A DNA stretch of 64,000 nucleotides from Candidatus Micrarchaeota archaeon. GTDB taxonomy: Archaea > Micrarchaeota > Micrarchaeia > Anstonellales > Bilamarchaeaceae. The first letter of the stretch is position 1. The number at the start of each line of letters is the position of its first letter. The position numbers and the translations under genes are program-made. Where the stretch lies: contig CAYSWK010000001.1 in assembly GCA_964434735.1 (NCBI GenBank), positions 2,537-66,536 of the forward strand, read 5' to 3'. Below, in pieces: positions 9,858-17,979 of this stretch. Under the pieces are notes generated by a model. The model ran no database searches. It had not been told where the DNA came from and saw only the letters and a list, made by a program, of their open reading frames with translations.

Positions 9858-10619
9858 ATGAAAGAGACAACTATCATTGAACGGAAAAAAATCAAGGCAA
9901 AAAATGCAATATTGATAACCGGTCTTCCAGGCATAGGTCTCGTTGGCAGAGTTGTTGGAAAATACCTTGCAGAAGAGCTGAAAGGGACCCATTTTGCAGA
10001 TATGTATTCGCCTCATTTTCCCCACCAAGTATTTATGACTAAACGCGGGGGGCTACGACTCATCAGGAATAAATTTTTCCTTTGCAAAGGCAAAAAACAT
10101 GACGTAATCTTGCTTACTGGAGATATCCAAGCAATGACTTCAACTGGCCAGTACGAAGTTGCCGGCGCAGTACTTGATTATGTCGAAAAAATGGGAGTAA
10201 ACACCGTCATAACCATCGGAGGTTATGGCATCGGAAAAATAAACGAATCACGAAGAATTCTTGCAGTCGCATCAAACGAAAAAGTGCTTGAAAAATTCAA
10301 AAAATTAGGAGTCGTATTCGGGGAAGCAAAAGGCTCAATCGTAGGTGCAGCCGGCCTTTTACCTGCATTCGCAAAAGTAAGGGGAATAGACGGCATCTGC
10401 CTTATGGGCGAAACGCATGGCGGCTATGTAGATGTAACTGCCGCAAAAAATATCGTAACGCTTCTTTCAAAATACCTTGGCTTTGATATAGATTTGACAC
10501 GGCTTGAGGCAAAAGCAAAGGAAAGCGAAAAAATCGTCAAAAAGATTGAGGAAGAAATCCAGACGAACATGATCCAGCCCTTTGAAGCAAACAAAAAGAG
10601 CATATCTTACATACGATAG
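9858..10619 (+). CDS. PAC2-family protein (proteasome assembly chaperone-like)
   Basis: ILITGLPGIGLVGRVVGKYL...GGYGIG motifs typical of archaeal PAC2/PbaA-like proteins. The start is taken at MKETTII. Confidence 0.55.
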   Translation: MKETTIIERKKIKAKNAILITGLPGIGLVGRVVGKYLAEELKGTHFADMYSPHFPHQVFMTKRGGLRLIRNKFFLCKGKKHDVILLTGDIQAMTSTGQYEVAGAVLDYVEKMGVNTVITIGGYGIGKINESRRILAVASNEKVLEKFKKLGVVFGEAKGSIVGAAGLLPAFAKVRGIDGICLMGETHGGYVDVTAAKNIVTLLSKYLGFDIDLTRLEAKAKESEKIVKKIEEEIQTNMIQPFEANKKSISYIR

Positions 10620-10662
10620 GCTCAAACAATATCTTTTTATTTTATGCTTTAAACAGTTAATT

Positions 10663-10911
10663 ATGAACGGCCGCGTTAAGGGACAGCTCTCTGCTGAAAT
10701 GCTTCTTTTAATAGTTGTGATAATCGCAATCATTGGAATTGCCGCAACACAGCTCCTTGGAAGCTCAAAAAATGCCTCAGAAACGATCAAGAACTCATCA
10801 AACCTCATAGTTGAGGATTCGTCACGAAGCCTCCTCAGAGGCCCGGGTGAGCCTTGTTCGGTAGATAACATCTGTGAATCAAACAGATGCCTTGAAGGAA
10901 AATGCGAATAG
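10663..10911 (+). CDS. Archaeal type IV pilin-like protein (class III signal peptide) with a Cys-rich C-terminal tail
   Basis: MNGRVKGQ|LSAEMLLLIVVIIAIIGIAA is a KGQ cleavage motif followed by a hydrophobic helix with Glu at +5. The C-terminus CSVDNICESNRCLEGKC has four Cys. Confidence 0.55.
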   Translation: MNGRVKGQLSAEMLLLIVVIIAIIGIAATQLLGSSKNASETIKNSSNLIVEDSSRSLLRGPGEPCSVDNICESNRCLEGKCE

Positions 10912-13563: not shown

Positions 13564-14424
13564 ATGAGAGAGAGGGTTGTTCCAAAACTGCCACTACAAG
13601 GTGGGATTCCAGCACCTTTACGTGAGCCGTTGGCACCCGATACAATTATAGGCACCTATAAAATAACTCATTCGCTCGGTAAAGGAGGGCAGGCGCGAGT
13701 CTATAGAGGAACGTGCCAACAAACGGGAAGAAATGTTGCAATCAAACAAACGATAACGACTGACTCTAAAGCAACTGCACAACTAAGAAAGGAAGCAGAC
13801 CATCTTTCATCACTCAAAGGCGTAACAGGAGTTGTATCTCTCATTGAATTAGACTCCCATGAACGATTTATGGCATTAGGATACGTCTCTGGACCTTCAC
13901 TCGCAAGAAAAGGATATGATCAAAATAGCACCTGGAGAGTACTTGCAACTGCGGCATGTGCAACATTACGAATTCTTAATGATGTACATGAAAATGGTGT
14001 GATTCATCGCGATGTAAAACCACAAAATATACTCGTGTCACCCGGAGGTCCCATCCTTATTGATTTTGGAATGGCACATACTGAAGGAACAATAACGCCT
14101 TCAAATAGGTGTGTAGTAGGCACTCCTACGTATATGGCGCCAGAACAAGCAATCGATCTGGAAAACGTTGATGGAAGAGCAGACATCTACTCAGTTGCAA
14201 CTATGCTATATCATGCGGCATTCGGCACATTTCCTTTTAGAGCAGATAGAGCAATAGAACTTCTTAGAATGAAACAACATGATAGGCCCCCGCTTCATCT
14301 TCCGTTTGCACGCGAAGGAGTGCCTGAAGGGATCCGCGACATACTTGCAAAAGGACTTGCACGTGATCCTGAAGAAAGATTCCAAACCGCAAAGGAATTT
14401 GCACAAGCACTTGAACAGGCATAA
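13564..14424 (+). CDS. Hanks-type (eukaryotic-like) Ser/Thr protein kinase, catalytic domain only
   Basis: GKGGQARVY (Gly loop), VAIK (beta-3 Lys), HRDVKPQNILV (catalytic loop), DFGMA, GTPTYMAPE. The coding sequence is visibly GC-richer than its neighbours. Confidence 0.8.
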   Translation: MRERVVPKLPLQGGIPAPLREPLAPDTIIGTYKITHSLGKGGQARVYRGTCQQTGRNVAIKQTITTDSKATAQLRKEADHLSSLKGVTGVVSLIELDSHERFMALGYVSGPSLARKGYDQNSTWRVLATAACATLRILNDVHENGVIHRDVKPQNILVSPGGPILIDFGMAHTEGTITPSNRCVVGTPTYMAPEQAIDLENVDGRADIYSVATMLYHAAFGTFPFRADRAIELLRMKQHDRPPLHLPFAREGVPEGIRDILAKGLARDPEERFQTAKEFAQALEQA

Positions 14425-15138
14425 CTAAAGCACCGGGAAAAAAGGTACCTTAAAGTTGTTTTTAACCAGCTCATCGATGAGCATCTTTTTTATCCTAAAA
14501 TACTCCTCCTTTGAATACTGTCTGTTTGCGATGCAGTATTGCTTTGACACCAAATGAAAACAGAACATACAATCCCTCAAATCAAACGAGTTATGGCAAA
14601 ACAGGGAATTTGAGCATTTGGCACTAAAACTTACCTCAAAACAATTGGTAAGAAGCTTGCTATCCTGAGTACGTAAACAGAACGAAGAGGAAAGCATGTT
14701 CTTTGAGCCAAATACGTACTCGCAATTGTTAAGAAGCGTCGAAAAACCGATGTTTTTTGAATTTGAGATATAGTTTGAAGCAAACACCTTTGAACTGCCA
14801 TACACATTATCCGACTCAAACACCTCAGTACTCTGAATGGATTTACTGCCAAGAAAGGAAAAAAACGGCCGTATTAATGATTCAATATCAGCCAATGAGG
14901 AAATAGACTCTTGTTCTGCCATGAAGCCATGTGAAGATTCCTTTTTGATCACTTCTTCTTGGCTGATGGGCGAAGCAGCGTATTCAGTATATACTTTGGT
15001 GCCCAAAAGCGTTGTCTTGCACGCAAGTTGAGGGATTCCAGTACCAAAAATGCGACGGGCTTCTTCCAAAGAATATGAAGGCTCTCGGCCAAAAAGCTCC
15101 TGAAAAACGGCATTAAATTGCTGTTGAAGTGGATTCAT
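14425..15138 (-). CDS. Hypothetical Cys/Asn/Ser-rich repeat protein, translationally coupled to the upstream HerA-like ATPase
   Basis: 237 aa. Its start overlaps the stop of the ATPase gene. The C-terminal half carries a roughly 9-11 aa periodic N/S/F/C repeat (SKVFASNYISNSKNIGFSTLLNNCEYVFGSKNMLSSSFC...CHNSFDLRDCMFCFH), suggesting a beta-solenoid. No family was recognised. Confidence 0.5.
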   Translation of the reverse strand: MNPLQQQFNAVFQELFGREPSYSLEEARRIFGTGIPQLACKTTLLGTKVYTEYAASPISQEEVIKKESSHGFMAEQESISSLADIESLIRPFFSFLGSKSIQSTEVFESDNVYGSSKVFASNYISNSKNIGFSTLLNNCEYVFGSKNMLSSSFCLRTQDSKLLTNCFEVSFSAKCSNSLFCHNSFDLRDCMFCFHLVSKQYCIANRQYSKEEYFRIKKMLIDELVKNNFKVPFFPVL

Positions 15139-16881
15139 CTAAATCACCATAGGAGCATCGATTGTGCGCACCTTTATGGGTTTTGCAAAAGAACCGTTCT
15201 GCATAATACGCACAACACATTCACGAGGATGGCTTTCGGTAAGGATTTCCATCTTCTTCTCCTCTATTTCAGCAAATGACTTGCCCGTTTCAAAAATAGG
15301 GTTAAGCTCAAGGTTCATCATCTCTTTTGCCACTTTTGCATCATCACGGTTTATCTTAAAGAAAAAAAGGTTGACCATGTTTGCCTTAATAGAGTTCGTA
15401 AGATCCTGCGAAAGCTGGCCCAAATACTGCTGGGAAAGAATAAGGGTAAGGCCAAATTTACGTGATTCTGAAAGAATATGTGCAAGGGCAGGATTTTGCA
15501 CAAGGGAAGCTTCATCAACGATAAGAAGCACCTTTTTCTTGAATATCCCTGCCTGGCTCAACGTAAATACCTGCTGCAAGATGGCCCCACCTACGAATTT
15601 AGTCATGTTCTTGCCAAGAAAGGCAGGGTTGACTGTAGCAAAAATGGCCGAATTTGAAAGAAGAAGGTCGGGAAGCGCATATTGCTTTGCGTCTTGGATC
15701 CCCGCGCTCAAAAGCGTGTATTCATTGATAAGATTAATGATAGGAAGCACCGCCACATCATAGCGCTGGGTTGAAAGCTCAAGATACTCAATTTCAAAAA
15801 AACGCTTGAGTACTTCGTTTTCGCTCCCCCGAATAAAATTCTTGCGTGCAAGCGTATCGGTAAGAAGAAGGCTCAAGTTTGAGAGGCTCATGCGCTGAGT
15901 TGAAAAAAGAAGGTAAAGTGCGTGCTTGAGCACACGAAGGACGTACGGGTTCTTCTCAAAATCTATAAATGATGAGAAAAGTGAAAGCGTAAGCTCGGTT
16001 GACATGGAAGGTTCCCCTGCATTTGAGAACAACTGAAGCGCTTCTGTCCTAAAGTCAATGTGCCGCTTGATAACGTCGTGCGCATGCTTTTGCACTTCTC
16101 CATGGGGGTCAATAAAAATAACGGAATAGTCCTTCAAAAGCCCGGAAGCAGCAAGCCCGCGAATGAACAGCTCAAGGAACTTACTTTTTCCAGAACCACT
16201 TTGTCCTACAATTAAAGAATGCTTGGAAAAGTCAAAATCATTGACTCCAAAACGACCCGTGCCATTCTGAAACAAAATACCTTGCGGTGCGTCAGAATGC
16301 TGATTAAGATCTGAATTTTTAAGTTCAACCGTAACCTTATCAACCGATTTTTCAACAGTGTTTTGCACGCCAAATGAAAGGAAACGTAAAGGATCATGAA
16401 CAACAATTGATTCCTTTTTACCGTCAGAATAGATTATGGTTCCGCAACCAACGCTTGGATTAAACGGCTGCTTTATAGATAGAGTAAGCACAAGCAAATC
16501 AACCGAACGATTACGCTTAACCTGCTCTTGCGAATTGAAGGAAAAAATACTCGTATGATAAATGGGACGAAGACCAATCCCTTTTCCGACTCGAAAAACA
16601 GGCGAAGGAACAGCGATGACGCGCATAGGGTGAAACAGCGAATTTCCGTTCTCAAGAAGAGGGATGTCCTTGATAAAATAACGAATGCGCCCCCCTTGAA
16701 CTTGCACAAGAAGCGTTACTGTCCAGGCAAAACTTGAGAGTTTTTCAAGAAATACGCTCCAGTCATGAGGAGTAATTTCATCTTTGTAAAAGGAAAGCTG
16801 ATAGAAACTCTCATGGGAAGGTACGTTTTTTTGATACTGCCCAAATGCAAGGCTTTTCCCAGATGAAGTGGTGGAGTTCAT
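15139..16881 (-). CDS. HerA/FtsK-superfamily ATPase, DUF87-like (HerA/VirB4/CedB-type)
   Basis: Walker A LIVGQSGSGKSKF, the DUF87-type VIFIDPHGE motif about 30 aa after the P-loop, Walker B KVLLIVDEASL. The start is taken at MNSTTSS. Confidence 0.75.
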   Translation of the reverse strand: MNSTTSSGKSLAFGQYQKNVPSHESFYQLSFYKDEITPHDWSVFLEKLSSFAWTVTLLVQVQGGRIRYFIKDIPLLENGNSLFHPMRVIAVPSPVFRVGKGIGLRPIYHTSIFSFNSQEQVKRNRSVDLLVLTLSIKQPFNPSVGCGTIIYSDGKKESIVVHDPLRFLSFGVQNTVEKSVDKVTVELKNSDLNQHSDAPQGILFQNGTGRFGVNDFDFSKHSLIVGQSGSGKSKFLELFIRGLAASGLLKDYSVIFIDPHGEVQKHAHDVIKRHIDFRTEALQLFSNAGEPSMSTELTLSLFSSFIDFEKNPYVLRVLKHALYLLFSTQRMSLSNLSLLLTDTLARKNFIRGSENEVLKRFFEIEYLELSTQRYDVAVLPIINLINEYTLLSAGIQDAKQYALPDLLLSNSAIFATVNPAFLGKNMTKFVGGAILQQVFTLSQAGIFKKKVLLIVDEASLVQNPALAHILSESRKFGLTLILSQQYLGQLSQDLTNSIKANMVNLFFFKINRDDAKVAKEMMNLELNPIFETGKSFAEIEEKKMEILTESHPRECVVRIMQNGSFAKPIKVRTIDAPMVI

Positions 16882-16980
16882 AGAACTACTTGAGCAAAAC
16901 GAAGCATATAATATGCTGCATTCAGAACTAAGCAAAATATGGAAAAGAATTTAAATAAATACGTATAATGATTAATATTT

Positions 16981-17979
16981 ATGGGATTAGACAAGAAAGA
17001 CGTAAAAATATTAAAAATTATATCCGATAATGCAAGGATTCCGGTAACCGAACTGGCAAAACAAGTGGAGTTATCAAAAGATGCTGTTTCGTACCGATTG
17101 AGTAACCTTGAAGCTAATGGCGCAATAAGCAAATATATCTCATACATTTCATTGCCGGCATTAGGGTATACTTCGTTTCAAGTCACGTTACGACTTGCCG
17201 GAGGGAAGGAAAGCCTTGAAAAAACAGTCGAATTCCTCAAAAAACATCCGTTTTGTATCAATGCATTTACAACGCTTGGTGCATGGGATGTCTTGGCTGA
17301 ATTTGCCGCCCAAAATGAAGTTGAAGTCGCCAAAATCATGAATGAAATTGCGGAGCACCTTGGAAATATGCTTGAGGCAATAGACTCAAAAATGCCATTT
17401 TACTTATACAAAAGGCCAAGCACACGTGGACTTCTTGAGCAGGAAATGGAACACCTAGAAACAAACGAAAACCCGTCTTTTGGAAGCGCAAAACTCGATG
17501 AAACGGATGTTAAAATACTATCGCTCCTTTCGGAGCACGGGCGAATAAAACTAACCGAACTTGCAGAAAAACTTGGTATCGAACGAGACGTTGTAGCATA
17601 TCGAAAAAAACAACTTGAAGAAAAAGGTGTGATTGATAAGTACCAAACACGTCTTGACCTTTCATTTTTTGAATATTCTGATTACTACCTTACAATAAAA
17701 ATGAAAAATATGATACGAAGCCAGGAAGAACTATTCAAAAGGTATATCCAATCCTCACCAAATGTCACGTATGGTTTCAGAAGCGCTGCGGCGTTCGAAG
17801 CTATACTTTTTTATGCCGCACGTTCTCCTAAAGAATTTCATGAACAAATTATGGAGTTAAGAAATACGTTTTCATCGTTTCTTCAATCATTTGAAGTGCT
17901 CGTGGTCCTTAAAAATCACCATTATACTTTATTCCCTGTTGGGATACAATCAAAGATTTTAGAAAAAAGACCGGGTTAA
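16981..17979 (+). CDS. Tandem-fused Lrp/AsnC-family transcription regulator (two HTH plus two RAM-like modules)
   Basis: Two copies of D.KILK/D.KILSLLSE...ELA..V..S...V..R...LE..G.I spaced about 170 aa apart; 332 aa, twice the usual Lrp length. Confidence 0.7.
   Translation: MGLDKKDVKILKIISDNARIPVTELAKQVELSKDAVSYRLSNLEANGAISKYISYISLPALGYTSFQVTLRLAGGKESLEKTVEFLKKHPFCINAFTTLGAWDVLAEFAAQNEVEVAKIMNEIAEHLGNMLEAIDSKMPFYLYKRPSTRGLLEQEMEHLETNENPSFGSAKLDETDVKILSLLSEHGRIKLTELAEKLGIERDVVAYRKKQLEEKGVIDKYQTRLDLSFFEYSDYYLTIKMKNMIRSQEELFKRYIQSSPNVTYGFRSAAAFEAILFYAARSPKEFHEQIMELRNTFSSFLQSFEVLVVLKNHHYTLFPVGIQSKILEKRPG

Follow-up and report, generated by a model that had tools for sequence, protein, structure and literature searches.

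What do two abutting genes on the reverse strand of a micrarchaeal contig encode, and do they belong together? The window studied here is a whole stretch of 64,000 nucleotides from contig CAYSWK010000001.1 of Candidatus Micrarchaeota archaeon, and at positions 14425-16881 it carries a gene for a HerA-like ATPase followed by a gene for a smaller repeat protein, which an earlier note had put forward as a candidate undescribed two-gene module. The present analysis shows that the ATPase and the smaller protein, hereafter the partner, form a genuine conserved two-gene module, and full-text searches of the published literature turned up no description of the pair or of the partner family. Both open reading frames (ORFs) lie where they had been placed:

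15139-16881, minus strand: ATPase gene, 580 amino acids (aa; ORF listing and translation), for a predicted soluble ATPase of the FtsK-HerA superfamily with a VirB4/HerA/TrwB-like motor

14425-15138, minus strand: partner gene, 237 aa, for a Ser/Cys-hexad repeat (beta-solenoid-like) protein of a new family

The TAG stop codon of the ATPase gene is followed directly by the ATG of the partner gene, leaving a gap of 0 nt instead of the stop/start overlap that the earlier note described. An upstream TTG at 16935 is an alternative start of the ATPase ORF, and the same ATG start for the 580-aa protein appears in independent gene calls on two other contigs that encode identical proteins.

The evidence that the two genes belong together comes from their relatives. 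A pattern scan of one genome per species over 185,579 species, which sets a lower bound on the distribution, detected partner relatives in at least 372 species genomes, while a word-index search yielded 46 full-length homologues and an exhaustive search yielded 2511 cluster representatives at 50% identity (E<=1e-3). A partner from Saccharibacteria used as a query retrieved 1227 clusters at 90% identity, the best 120 of which are all 228-237 aa long and 61-85% identical to that partner, with the source names shown all reading "hypothetical." Of the first 90 loci read in the neighbourhood survey, 84 contained the ATPase according to a hidden Markov model scan, almost always directly upstream of the partner and on the same strand, and a DUF87 ATPase is directly upstream in every neighbourhood inspected through gene calls. 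Most gaps between the two genes lie in the range from -17 to +22 nt, the commonest arrangements being overlaps of 4, 8, or 11 nt. The two proteins also diverge in step, given that their pairwise distances correlate at r = 0.913 over 70 pairs, a value that 0 of 999 permutations reached. When the divergence of the motor is controlled, the highest residual correlation, a weak one of 0.39, is found between the N-terminal domains of the two proteins. Fusions of ATPase and partner (Rosetta stone proteins) number 0 among 280 retrieved proteins. The partner has not turned out to be a member of a known family, nor the pair a piece of a conjugative type IV secretion system (T4SS): family matches are zero and T4SS genes lie near the pair in one of about 80 loci. 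A description of the pair or of the partner family is likewise absent from PMC12857230, PMC12102498, PMC10633639 and its supplements, PMC11868833, PMC8204110, and PMC9938205.

The Walker A, DPHGE, and Walker B motifs that had first drawn attention to the ATPase are all present, and key residues in each are invariant among 38 homologues. The features of the protein are as follows:

16246-16815, minus strand: family-specific N-terminal alpha/beta domain, aa 23-212 (two beta-alpha-beta-beta units in the model, with a predicted local distance difference test score, pLDDT, of 75-92)

16183-16206, minus strand: Walker A GQSGSGKS, aa 226-233 (G226, G229, G231, K232, and S233 invariant)

16096-16110, minus strand: DPHGE motif, aa 258-262 (D258, P259, and H260 invariant)

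15688-16011, minus strand: all-helical insertion in the motor, aa 291-398 (helices at 291-396 in the model)

15505-15528, minus strand: Walker B LLIVDEAS, aa 452-459 (D456 and E457 invariant)

15451-15468, minus strand: ESRKFG, aa 472-477, candidate arginine-finger/sensor region (E472, R474, and K475 invariant)

After ESRKFG, Q485 and Y486 are invariant as well. The candidate arginine finger is assigned to ESRKFG by analogy with FtsK and HerA, and the helical insertion may correspond to the all-alpha domain of TrwB and VirB4. The invariance of the catalytic residues means that the enzyme is under selection for catalysis.

With regard to its family, the ATPase has the RecA-like P-loop core, the Walker A and B motifs, the Arg/polar sensor region, and the fold of the FtsK-HerA superfamily. 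Its Pfam matches are DUF87 (4.7e-9), TrwB_AAD_bind (9.3e-8), and FtsK_SpoIIIE (2.9e-5). The TrwB_AAD_bind match (PF10412; 31.8 bits, cutoff 20.5) covers aa 447-521, outside the helical insertion, and together with that insertion in the model it supplies the all-alpha/TrwB_AAD_bind hallmark of type IV coupling proteins (T4CPs). The curated NCBIfam models for CedD, CedB, TraD, TraG, and anti-phage HerA, on the other hand, give 13-35 bits against cutoffs of 366-850. The top PADLOC match is mad8 (45 bits, 2e-12, aa 219-519), followed by weak HerA models that cover only the P-loop stretch. A homologue search delimits the clade sharply, with at least 169 bits inside and at most 83 bits outside. The initial grouping with the HerA/VirB4/CedB ATPases thus holds at the level of the branch, but the protein is not HerA proper, a T4CP, VirB4, or CedB/D as these are defined. 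Comparison of the predicted structure with known folds gave scores of 27.1 for the VirB4 C-domain (4ag5), 26.9 for the DptH/DndH C-domain, 23.6 for Sulfolobus solfataricus HerA, 23.2 for TrwB, 21.6 for HerA-NurA, 21.4 for HerA-DUF, 19.8 for DotL, 18.3 for TdpA, 18.2 for Cag-beta, and 16.9 for FtsK, each match aligning about 300-340 residues that comprise the motor and the helical insertion. The modeled fold is, therefore, closest to those of the VirB4 C-domain, DptH, HerA, and TrwB. The first 212 residues form a separate alpha/beta domain in the model; a profile of this domain has zero matches in PDB sequences or Pfam, and no other part of the protein evolves as fast (mean distance 0.74). The ATPase, whose pI is 8.9, reaches a maximal 19-residue Kyte-Doolittle hydropathy of 1.35 and has no transmembrane segment. 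Where family ATPases reach 1.6 or more, the segment mostly belongs to the helical domain near aa 370-480, and the occasional N-terminal cases are in ORFs with an over-called start. From its sequence, the ATPase is predicted to be soluble and to have no membrane anchor.

The partner has three recognizable parts:

14854-15138, minus strand: N-terminal alpha/beta domain, aa 1-95 (pLDDT 78-88; helices 3-16, 24-31, 60-70, and 82-92; hairpin 39-51)

14554-14832, minus strand: repeat region, aa 103-195, of about 15 hexads [S/C]-x-x-[V/I/L/C]-x-x, whose register shifts by three residues near aa 157

14500-14574, minus strand: invariant C-terminal motif DCMFCFHLVSKQYCIANRQYSKEEY, aa 189-213 (family alignment)

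The AlphaFold2 model of the whole protein, which has a pLDDT of 74 and a predicted template modeling score of 0.79, adds a C-terminal helix at aa 210-226. The hexads, nine over aa 103-151 and six over aa 160-190, have Ser or Cys at position 1 and a hydrophobic residue or Cys at position 4, and position 1 is retained in 80-100% of the 41 family members aligned. In the first hexad block, the observed period-6 signal was reached in 0 of 5000 column shuffles, while the N-terminal domain has no hexad periodicity; the short repeats and probable beta-solenoid proposed at the outset are thus borne out far above chance. The repeat region is conserved like the ATPase motor (mean distance 0.48 versus 0.49-0.54). 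The protein contains nine Cys, at positions 40, 139, 154, 166, 175, 181, 190, 193, and 202, and not the ten first counted. Only C190, C193, and C202 are conserved, in 90-100% of the members. The other six positions hold Cys in 37-56% of the members and are swapped with Ser, so they look like core-packing residues and not like ligands; a role for all the Cys as metal or disulfide ligands was rejected for that reason. Within the C-terminal block, D-C-M-F-C-F-H-x3-K-Q-Y-C-I-A-N-x-Q-x3-E-E-Y, the residues F192, C193, Y201, C202, I203, and N205 are invariant, and C190, H195, A204, Q207, E212, and Y213 are kept in at least 90% of the members, H195 being His in 39 of 41 and Asn in one archaeal clade. 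This block probably caps the solenoid, and it could hold a zinc ion.

As anticipated, the partner matches no recognized family: searches of Pfam (E<=0.1), NCBIfam, PADLOC, PHROGs, and PDB sequences all gave zero matches. Some specific identities were considered and rejected. An HNH/beta-beta-alpha-Me nuclease is contradicted by the hairpin of the C-terminal motif, which carries Y201, C202, I203, and N205 and lacks a His at the catalytic position, by the replacement of H195 with Asn in one clade, and by nil profile support. A canonical hexapeptide left-handed beta-helix (PF00132) would have to account for the lack of a Pfam match at E<=0.1 and for a Ser-to-hydrophobic spacing of 3, not 4/2, and the pattern is not of the pentapeptide-repeat kind either. 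A DNA mimic finds no support in the pI, which is near neutral (6.8) for the protein in the window and only mildly acidic (median 5.3) for the family. Finally, a domain shared by the ATPase N-terminus and the partner was not detected (hhalign probability 0.1).

How widely is the pair distributed, and how did it spread? The taxon names used here are labels on database records, not phylogenetic placements. Among the best 80 of the 372 species, about 10 are labeled Micrarchaeota or other archaea, about 19 Patescibacteria (Saccharibacteria, Gottesman-, Davies-, Roizman-, Shapiro-, Levy-, and Taylorbacteria), and about 38 are gut metagenome-assembled genomes (MAGs) labeled Bacilli, Clostridia, Tenericutes, or Erysipelotrichaceae. 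The gut MAG loci (a subset of L025-L090) have a GC content of 24-31%, and their proteins group with those of Saccharibacteria. Three loci labeled Muribaculaceae have 25-28% GC, which we judge too low for that family, and mis-binning is possible. By similarity, the archaeal sequences split into two clusters, each beside a different set of Patescibacteria, which points to at least two inter-domain transfers of the intact pair. The partner was found in none of 72,556 plasmids (PLSDB), 50,697 phage genomes (INPHARED), and the viral contigs of IMG/VR. The supplementary tables for the genetically tractable Southlakia epibionticum ML1 list VirB4 and two T4CP-like proteins, which are larger, with ATPase domains extending to aa 800-920, and contain no obvious orthologue. 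One Saccharibacteria MAG carries partner paralogues on both sides of the ATPase gene, in the order partner, ATPase, partner (L042:3172-6690).

In archaea, the partner has expanded. One Micrarchaeota MAG has six tandem partner paralogues directly after a single ATPase gene (L036:5938-10383), and another has seven (L024:170-5258), on a contig that begins within the array so that an ATPase is not visible. The two arrays are orthologous; the identity among their paralogues is 40-50%, and the C-terminal CMFC...YCIAN motif is present in every one of them. There is also a large subfamily, about 520-540 aa in length, whose members carry two entire partner modules one after the other, and those with a source name come from Micrarchaeota. 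A metagenome scan for this double-module subfamily found 276 relatives, and 79 loci from the scan (L097-L175) together with L093-L096 make up 83 archaeal-type loci, several of which may share one long contig. An ATPase-like gene occurs within 5 kb in only 15 of the 83. Arrays in this set reach six to eight single- or double-module genes (L121:1703-11417, L133:172-9299), and the ATPase-like gene is often convergent with the array and abuts its end (L104, L108, L119, L123). In three loci, a double-module gene (534 aa) lies directly downstream of LonB and beside DnaK/GrpE (L093:4858-8489, L094, and L097), and no HerA-like ATPase is found within 8 kb of it; L093 and L097 encode identical proteins, and the gene order recurs in L094. 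In Micrarchaeota-type archaea, the coupling of the solenoid family to the motor is therefore only partial. That whole partner modules occur naturally fused suggests that they act at least as dimers.

The surroundings of the pair vary widely from locus to locus. Approximately 280 flanking genes represent more than 120 Pfam families on each side, no defence, integrase, relaxase, or T4SS family is among the most frequent, and no third gene is conserved apart from lineage-specific regulators. In 28 low-GC loci, such a regulator, an AraC-type helix-turn-helix (HTH) protein with a GyrI-like/Cass2 domain, is encoded directly upstream of the ATPase on the same strand (for example L061:3240-4058, with a gap of about 70 nt to the ATPase). 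At one candidate phyla radiation locus (L005), an ABC1 kinase gene overlaps the ATPase start by 4 nt, an arrangement that is not recurrent. Another pair sits near toxin-antitoxin/Abi genes (L003). At L007, the pair lies between recA-recX and an RNase Y gene on a contig that clusters with Microgenomates-labeled loci, and a PrgI/TraC-like/VirB4 cluster (L007:13015-16270) follows about 4-5 kb downstream, which is the sole T4SS linkage among the roughly 80 loci. In the window itself, the pair is bounded as follows:

13564-14424, plus strand: Hanks-type Ser/Thr kinase gene (Pfam Pkinase 1e-34), convergent with the partner gene

16882-16980, no strand: AT-rich divergent intergenic region of 99 nt between the ATPase gene and the tandem-Lrp gene

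16981-17979, plus strand: tandem Lrp/AsnC regulator gene with two HTH_AsnC/HTH_24 modules, divergent from the ATPase gene

The divergent tandem-Lrp flank reported for the window also occurs at the Micrarchaeota loci L001, L012, and L096, Lrp-like genes lie near nine double-partner loci, and the order Lrp, ATPase, partner is kept in other Micrarchaeota at a protein identity of only about 50%. In the archaeal versions, the tandem Lrp/AsnC gene likely encodes a dedicated regulator. Inside the intergenic region, at 16898-16922, lies a near-perfect palindrome, AACGAAGCATAT-A-ATATGCTGCATT, a candidate operator/promoter element.

These flanks had led to the proposal of a horizontally acquired island with a GC-rich kinase, which the present data do not sustain. 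The kinase does abut the pair with 0-nt spacing, its stop at 14424 being next to that of the partner at 14425. It has, however, a GC content of 44.3% against 41.3% for the window and a GC content at third codon positions of only 27%, and the pair has 40-43% against 41%; there is accordingly no compositional sign of foreign origin. The pair has the GC of its flanks and a gene order kept in other Micrarchaeota, and its neighbours are housekeeping genes, the window encoding SRP54, folylpolyglutamate synthase, inositol-1-phosphate synthase, an MscS-type channel, PAC2, Alba, and a V-ATPase subunit. No integrase was seen around the pair, the nearest tRNAs are at 39-42 kb of the window and all tRNAs are more than 22 kb from the pair, and neither the ATPase nor the partner gene has a second copy in the 64 kb. 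Presence on plasmids or phages, integrase or tRNA flanks, and compositional anomaly all being absent, the pair does not behave as part of a mobile element. The kinase was also rejected as part of the module, because it is beside the pair in no other locus examined; it matches the PD-T4-6 and mad6 kinase models of PADLOC, and generic kinase models score higher. Elsewhere in the window, an ORF of 109 aa (10582-10911, plus strand) combines an N-terminal hydrophobic stretch with a Cys-rich C-terminal tail (CSVDNICESNRCLEGKCE), and its N-terminus resembles, by eye only, an archaeal class-III signal peptide of the type IV pilin-like kind.

What, then, might the pair do? The explanation we favour, tentatively and with somewhat less than even confidence, is that it constitutes a self-contained cytoplasmic two-component machine that acts on DNA, in genome maintenance or surveillance. 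The ATPase would hexamerise, by analogy with the ring translocases of the FtsK-HerA superfamily, and the partner would be made in step with it because the stop codon of the one gene abuts or overlaps the start codon of the other. The partner, as a dimer or oligomer, would then dock on the ring stoichiometrically, probably via the two fast-evolving N-terminal domains, much as NurA, Sir2, DUF4297, and TdpB do on their HerA-type motors. The motor might translocate or remodel DNA, with the Ser/Cys-hexad solenoid serving as a non-catalytic adaptor, sensor, or gate, and expression would be controlled by the neighbouring ligand-sensing regulator, Lrp in archaea and the AraC/GyrI-like protein in low-GC bacteria. 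We infer all of the hexamer, the contact between the two proteins, the DNA substrate, and the biological role. DNA is favoured as the substrate because of the motor class, the stoichiometric coupling of the partner, and the basic charge of the ATPase, whose predicted pI is compatible with nucleic acid binding. Moreover, because the pair has passed at least twice between archaea and bacteria, a universal substrate should be all that it requires. Several observations weigh against this explanation. No DNA-binding domain was identified, the partner shows no detectable nuclease, NADase, or other catalytic signature, and DNA-repair genes are not clearly enriched among the approximately 280 neighbours. 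The next relatives beyond the ATPase clade are T4CP-like proteins with PF02534, PF12696, or PF26449 domains, and not HerA. The proposed solenoid at aa 100-207 of the partner is modeled with very short strands at moderate confidence (pLDDT 57-74). In addition, the expansion into arrays and dispersed copies, with an ATPase near only a minority of them, is a pattern that suits clients, substrates, or specificity modules better than it suits a fixed subunit.

The kinship of those next relatives, along with the TrwB_AAD_bind match above the cutoff, would suit an orphan soluble T4CP/VirB4-like motor for which the solenoid protein and its paralogues are adaptor or cargo, an alternative that we regard as rather unlikely. 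Such a motor would recognise the C-terminal motif, which paralogue arrays, fused doubles, and dispersed copies all retain, and would deliver or unfold proteins for a channel encoded elsewhere, the T4SS of Patescibacteria or an archaeal equivalent, which could serve cell-to-cell interaction in host-dependent microbes. Orphans of this type are plentiful, as the genomes of Patescibacteria hold 5,713 VirD4-like T4CP homologues, only 148 of them near virB4, and the authors of that survey note possible exaptation (PMC12102498). Small bound partners of T4CPs also have precedents in Cag-beta/CagZ (PDB 8dol) and the DotL complex (PMC12857230), and the PrgI/TraC/VirB4 genes downstream of the pair at L007 fit as well. 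A coupling protein, however, should not lack a transmembrane anchor in both the ATPase and the partner, a conserved membrane or channel gene nearby, a relaxase, and, in the 64-kb window, a second ATPase of the superfamily, and should not be linked to a T4SS only once in about 80 loci. The TraD/TraG/VirD4 scores in NCBIfam are far under the cutoffs, the solenoid is as conserved as the motor, and the identity among the best 120 Saccharibacteria-type clusters is unusually high for a secreted effector. We consider unlikely the interpretation of the pair as an anti-phage or anti-plasmid system, a HerA-type ATPase plus effector in which the solenoid is a new sensor or effector. It accords with structural neighbours that include the ATPases of DndFGH/DptH, HerA-DUF4297, Sir2-HerA (Nezha), and TdpAB, with mad8 and then weak HerA models as the top PADLOC matches, with an autonomous two-gene unit that moved between domains, with a distribution over at least 372 of 185,579 species, if this is read as patchy, and with the toxin-antitoxin/Abi genes at L003; paralogue expansion could reflect diversification of specificity. 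Yet the PADLOC models do not match the partner, no recognisable toxic effector domain was found in it, and the neighbours are overwhelmingly housekeeping genes, with defence and mobile-element families not among the most frequent. The stable synteny at about 50% protein identity in Micrarchaeota, the very high conservation within Saccharibacteria, and the absence of the partner from the plasmids, phages, and IMG/VR contigs point the same way, and context, conservation, and plasmid/phage absence together argue against a typical defence island.

The archaeal expansions invite another possibility, although we think it distinctly improbable: the solenoid proteins might themselves be the product, stacking end-to-end into a cytoplasmic fibre or scaffold, with the ATPase as an assembly or disassembly factor whose role LonB or other chaperones take in some archaea. 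Bactofilins are a case of a solenoid that polymerises end-to-end, and the beta-solenoid-like repeat architecture, the head-to-tail fusions of two modules, and the stable orthologous arrays of six to seven diverged paralogues are what such a product might show, as are the double-module gene directly after LonB and beside DnaK/GrpE at three loci and the lack of a nearby ATPase at most double-module loci. No FtsK-HerA ATPase, however, is known to us to work as the chaperone of a polymer, the partner has no similarity to bactofilin or other cytoskeletal families, the LonB adjacency is limited to L093, L094, and L097, and the 1:1 coupling seen in bacteria is more readily understood for a complex than for an enzyme and its substrate. 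About equally doubtful is the idea that the pair forms the core of a so far undescribed machine that is peculiar to host-dependent prokaryotes with small genomes, in which a soluble motor of the VirB4/T4CP class recognises the CxxC...YCIAN motif and loads, assembles, or exports the solenoids, which might, for example, be the building blocks or the cargo of a cell-to-cell bridge. Its hosts would be Patescibacteria, Micrarchaeota, and possibly reduced low-GC gut lineages, reached by inter-domain transfer, and, if true, it would account for a family that in Micrarchaeota has more than six paralogues, fused double modules, and dispersed copies.

Whichever of these roles the pair plays, a machine acting on DNA being the one we prefer, it belongs to a poorly explained part of the microbial world. 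A large share of microbial diversity is due to Patescibacteria and DPANN archaea, and their conserved "hypothetical" genes are almost entirely unexplained. The partner family belongs among the rare DPANN families without a known function that also occur in bacteria; according to a published survey, there are "only a few" of these (PMC8204110). Its genes are tied to a ring ATPase of a class whose members power DNA translocation and type IV secretion. Its function would annotate thousands of genes and could explain some of the orphan T4CP-like ATPases of Patescibacteria (PMC12102498). Genetic tools exist for Saccharibacteria, so the question is directly testable.

Comparison with known systems shows which features of the pair are shared and which are its own. 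In HerA-NurA, the complex for DNA end resection in archaea and bacteria, the motor works with the NurA nuclease, whereas the partner has no NurA match in Pfam or PDB, and no NurA, Mre11, or Rad50 genes are present among the approximately 280 neighbours. HerA has an N-terminal HAS barrel; the N-terminus of the ATPase is modeled as a helix-containing alpha/beta domain that has no detectable match and in which a HAS barrel is not recognisable. In sequence, the ATPase resembles HerA only around the P-loop. From the anti-phage HerA pairs, TdpAB, and DndFGH (DptH), the pair differs in lacking a Sir2, DUF4297, nuclease, or DndFG partner and a defence-island context, the gene order here being ATPase first, and the NCBIfam models for anti-phage HerA give only 13-15 bits against cutoffs of 800-850. 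Of the MADS system (mad1-8), the mad8 match of the ATPase and the mad6 match of the kinase are reminiscent, but the other mad genes are absent. With VirB4, only the C-terminal motor is similar, and a match to the CagE/TrbE/VirB4 N-domain is missing. CedB and CedD are VirB4-NTD-like paralogues in Sulfolobales (PMC11868833); the ATPase scores 35 bits against a cutoff of 600 for CedD and 20 against 700 for CedB, and neither a VirB3 nor a CedA-like membrane partner was seen among the neighbours. The T4CPs (TrwB/VirD4/DotL/Cag-beta) share with the ATPase the TrwB_AAD_bind signature and the helical insertion, they too have small bound partners, and most of their homologues in Patescibacteria are likewise unlinked to virB4 (PMC12102498). 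They have, in contrast, an N-terminal membrane anchor that the ATPase lacks, a distinct N-domain, and a linkage to T4SS or relaxase genes not seen here, and the NCBIfam TraD/TraG models reach 14-27 bits against cutoffs of 366-686. The pair is further set apart from the T4CPs, the orphans of Patescibacteria included, by its occurrence also in Archaea and by the split of the clade in bit scores.

For the partner, the nearest likeness that we can offer is a lead only. The antifreeze protein of Tenebrio is a tight beta-solenoid built from the 12-residue repeat TCTxSxxCxxAx, with an internal ladder of Ser, Cys, and small residues. The partner likewise places a small (Ser/Cys) or hydrophobic residue at every third position over about 90 residues, but a sequence match or a detectable fold match between the two is absent. 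A disulfide ladder is unlikely in the partner, because it appears to be cytoplasmic and its Cys are swapped with Ser. A ring motor with a dedicated partner is an already known kind of system; what is new is the partner family, the ATPase clade with its private N-terminal domain, the phyletic pattern, and the expansions in archaea.

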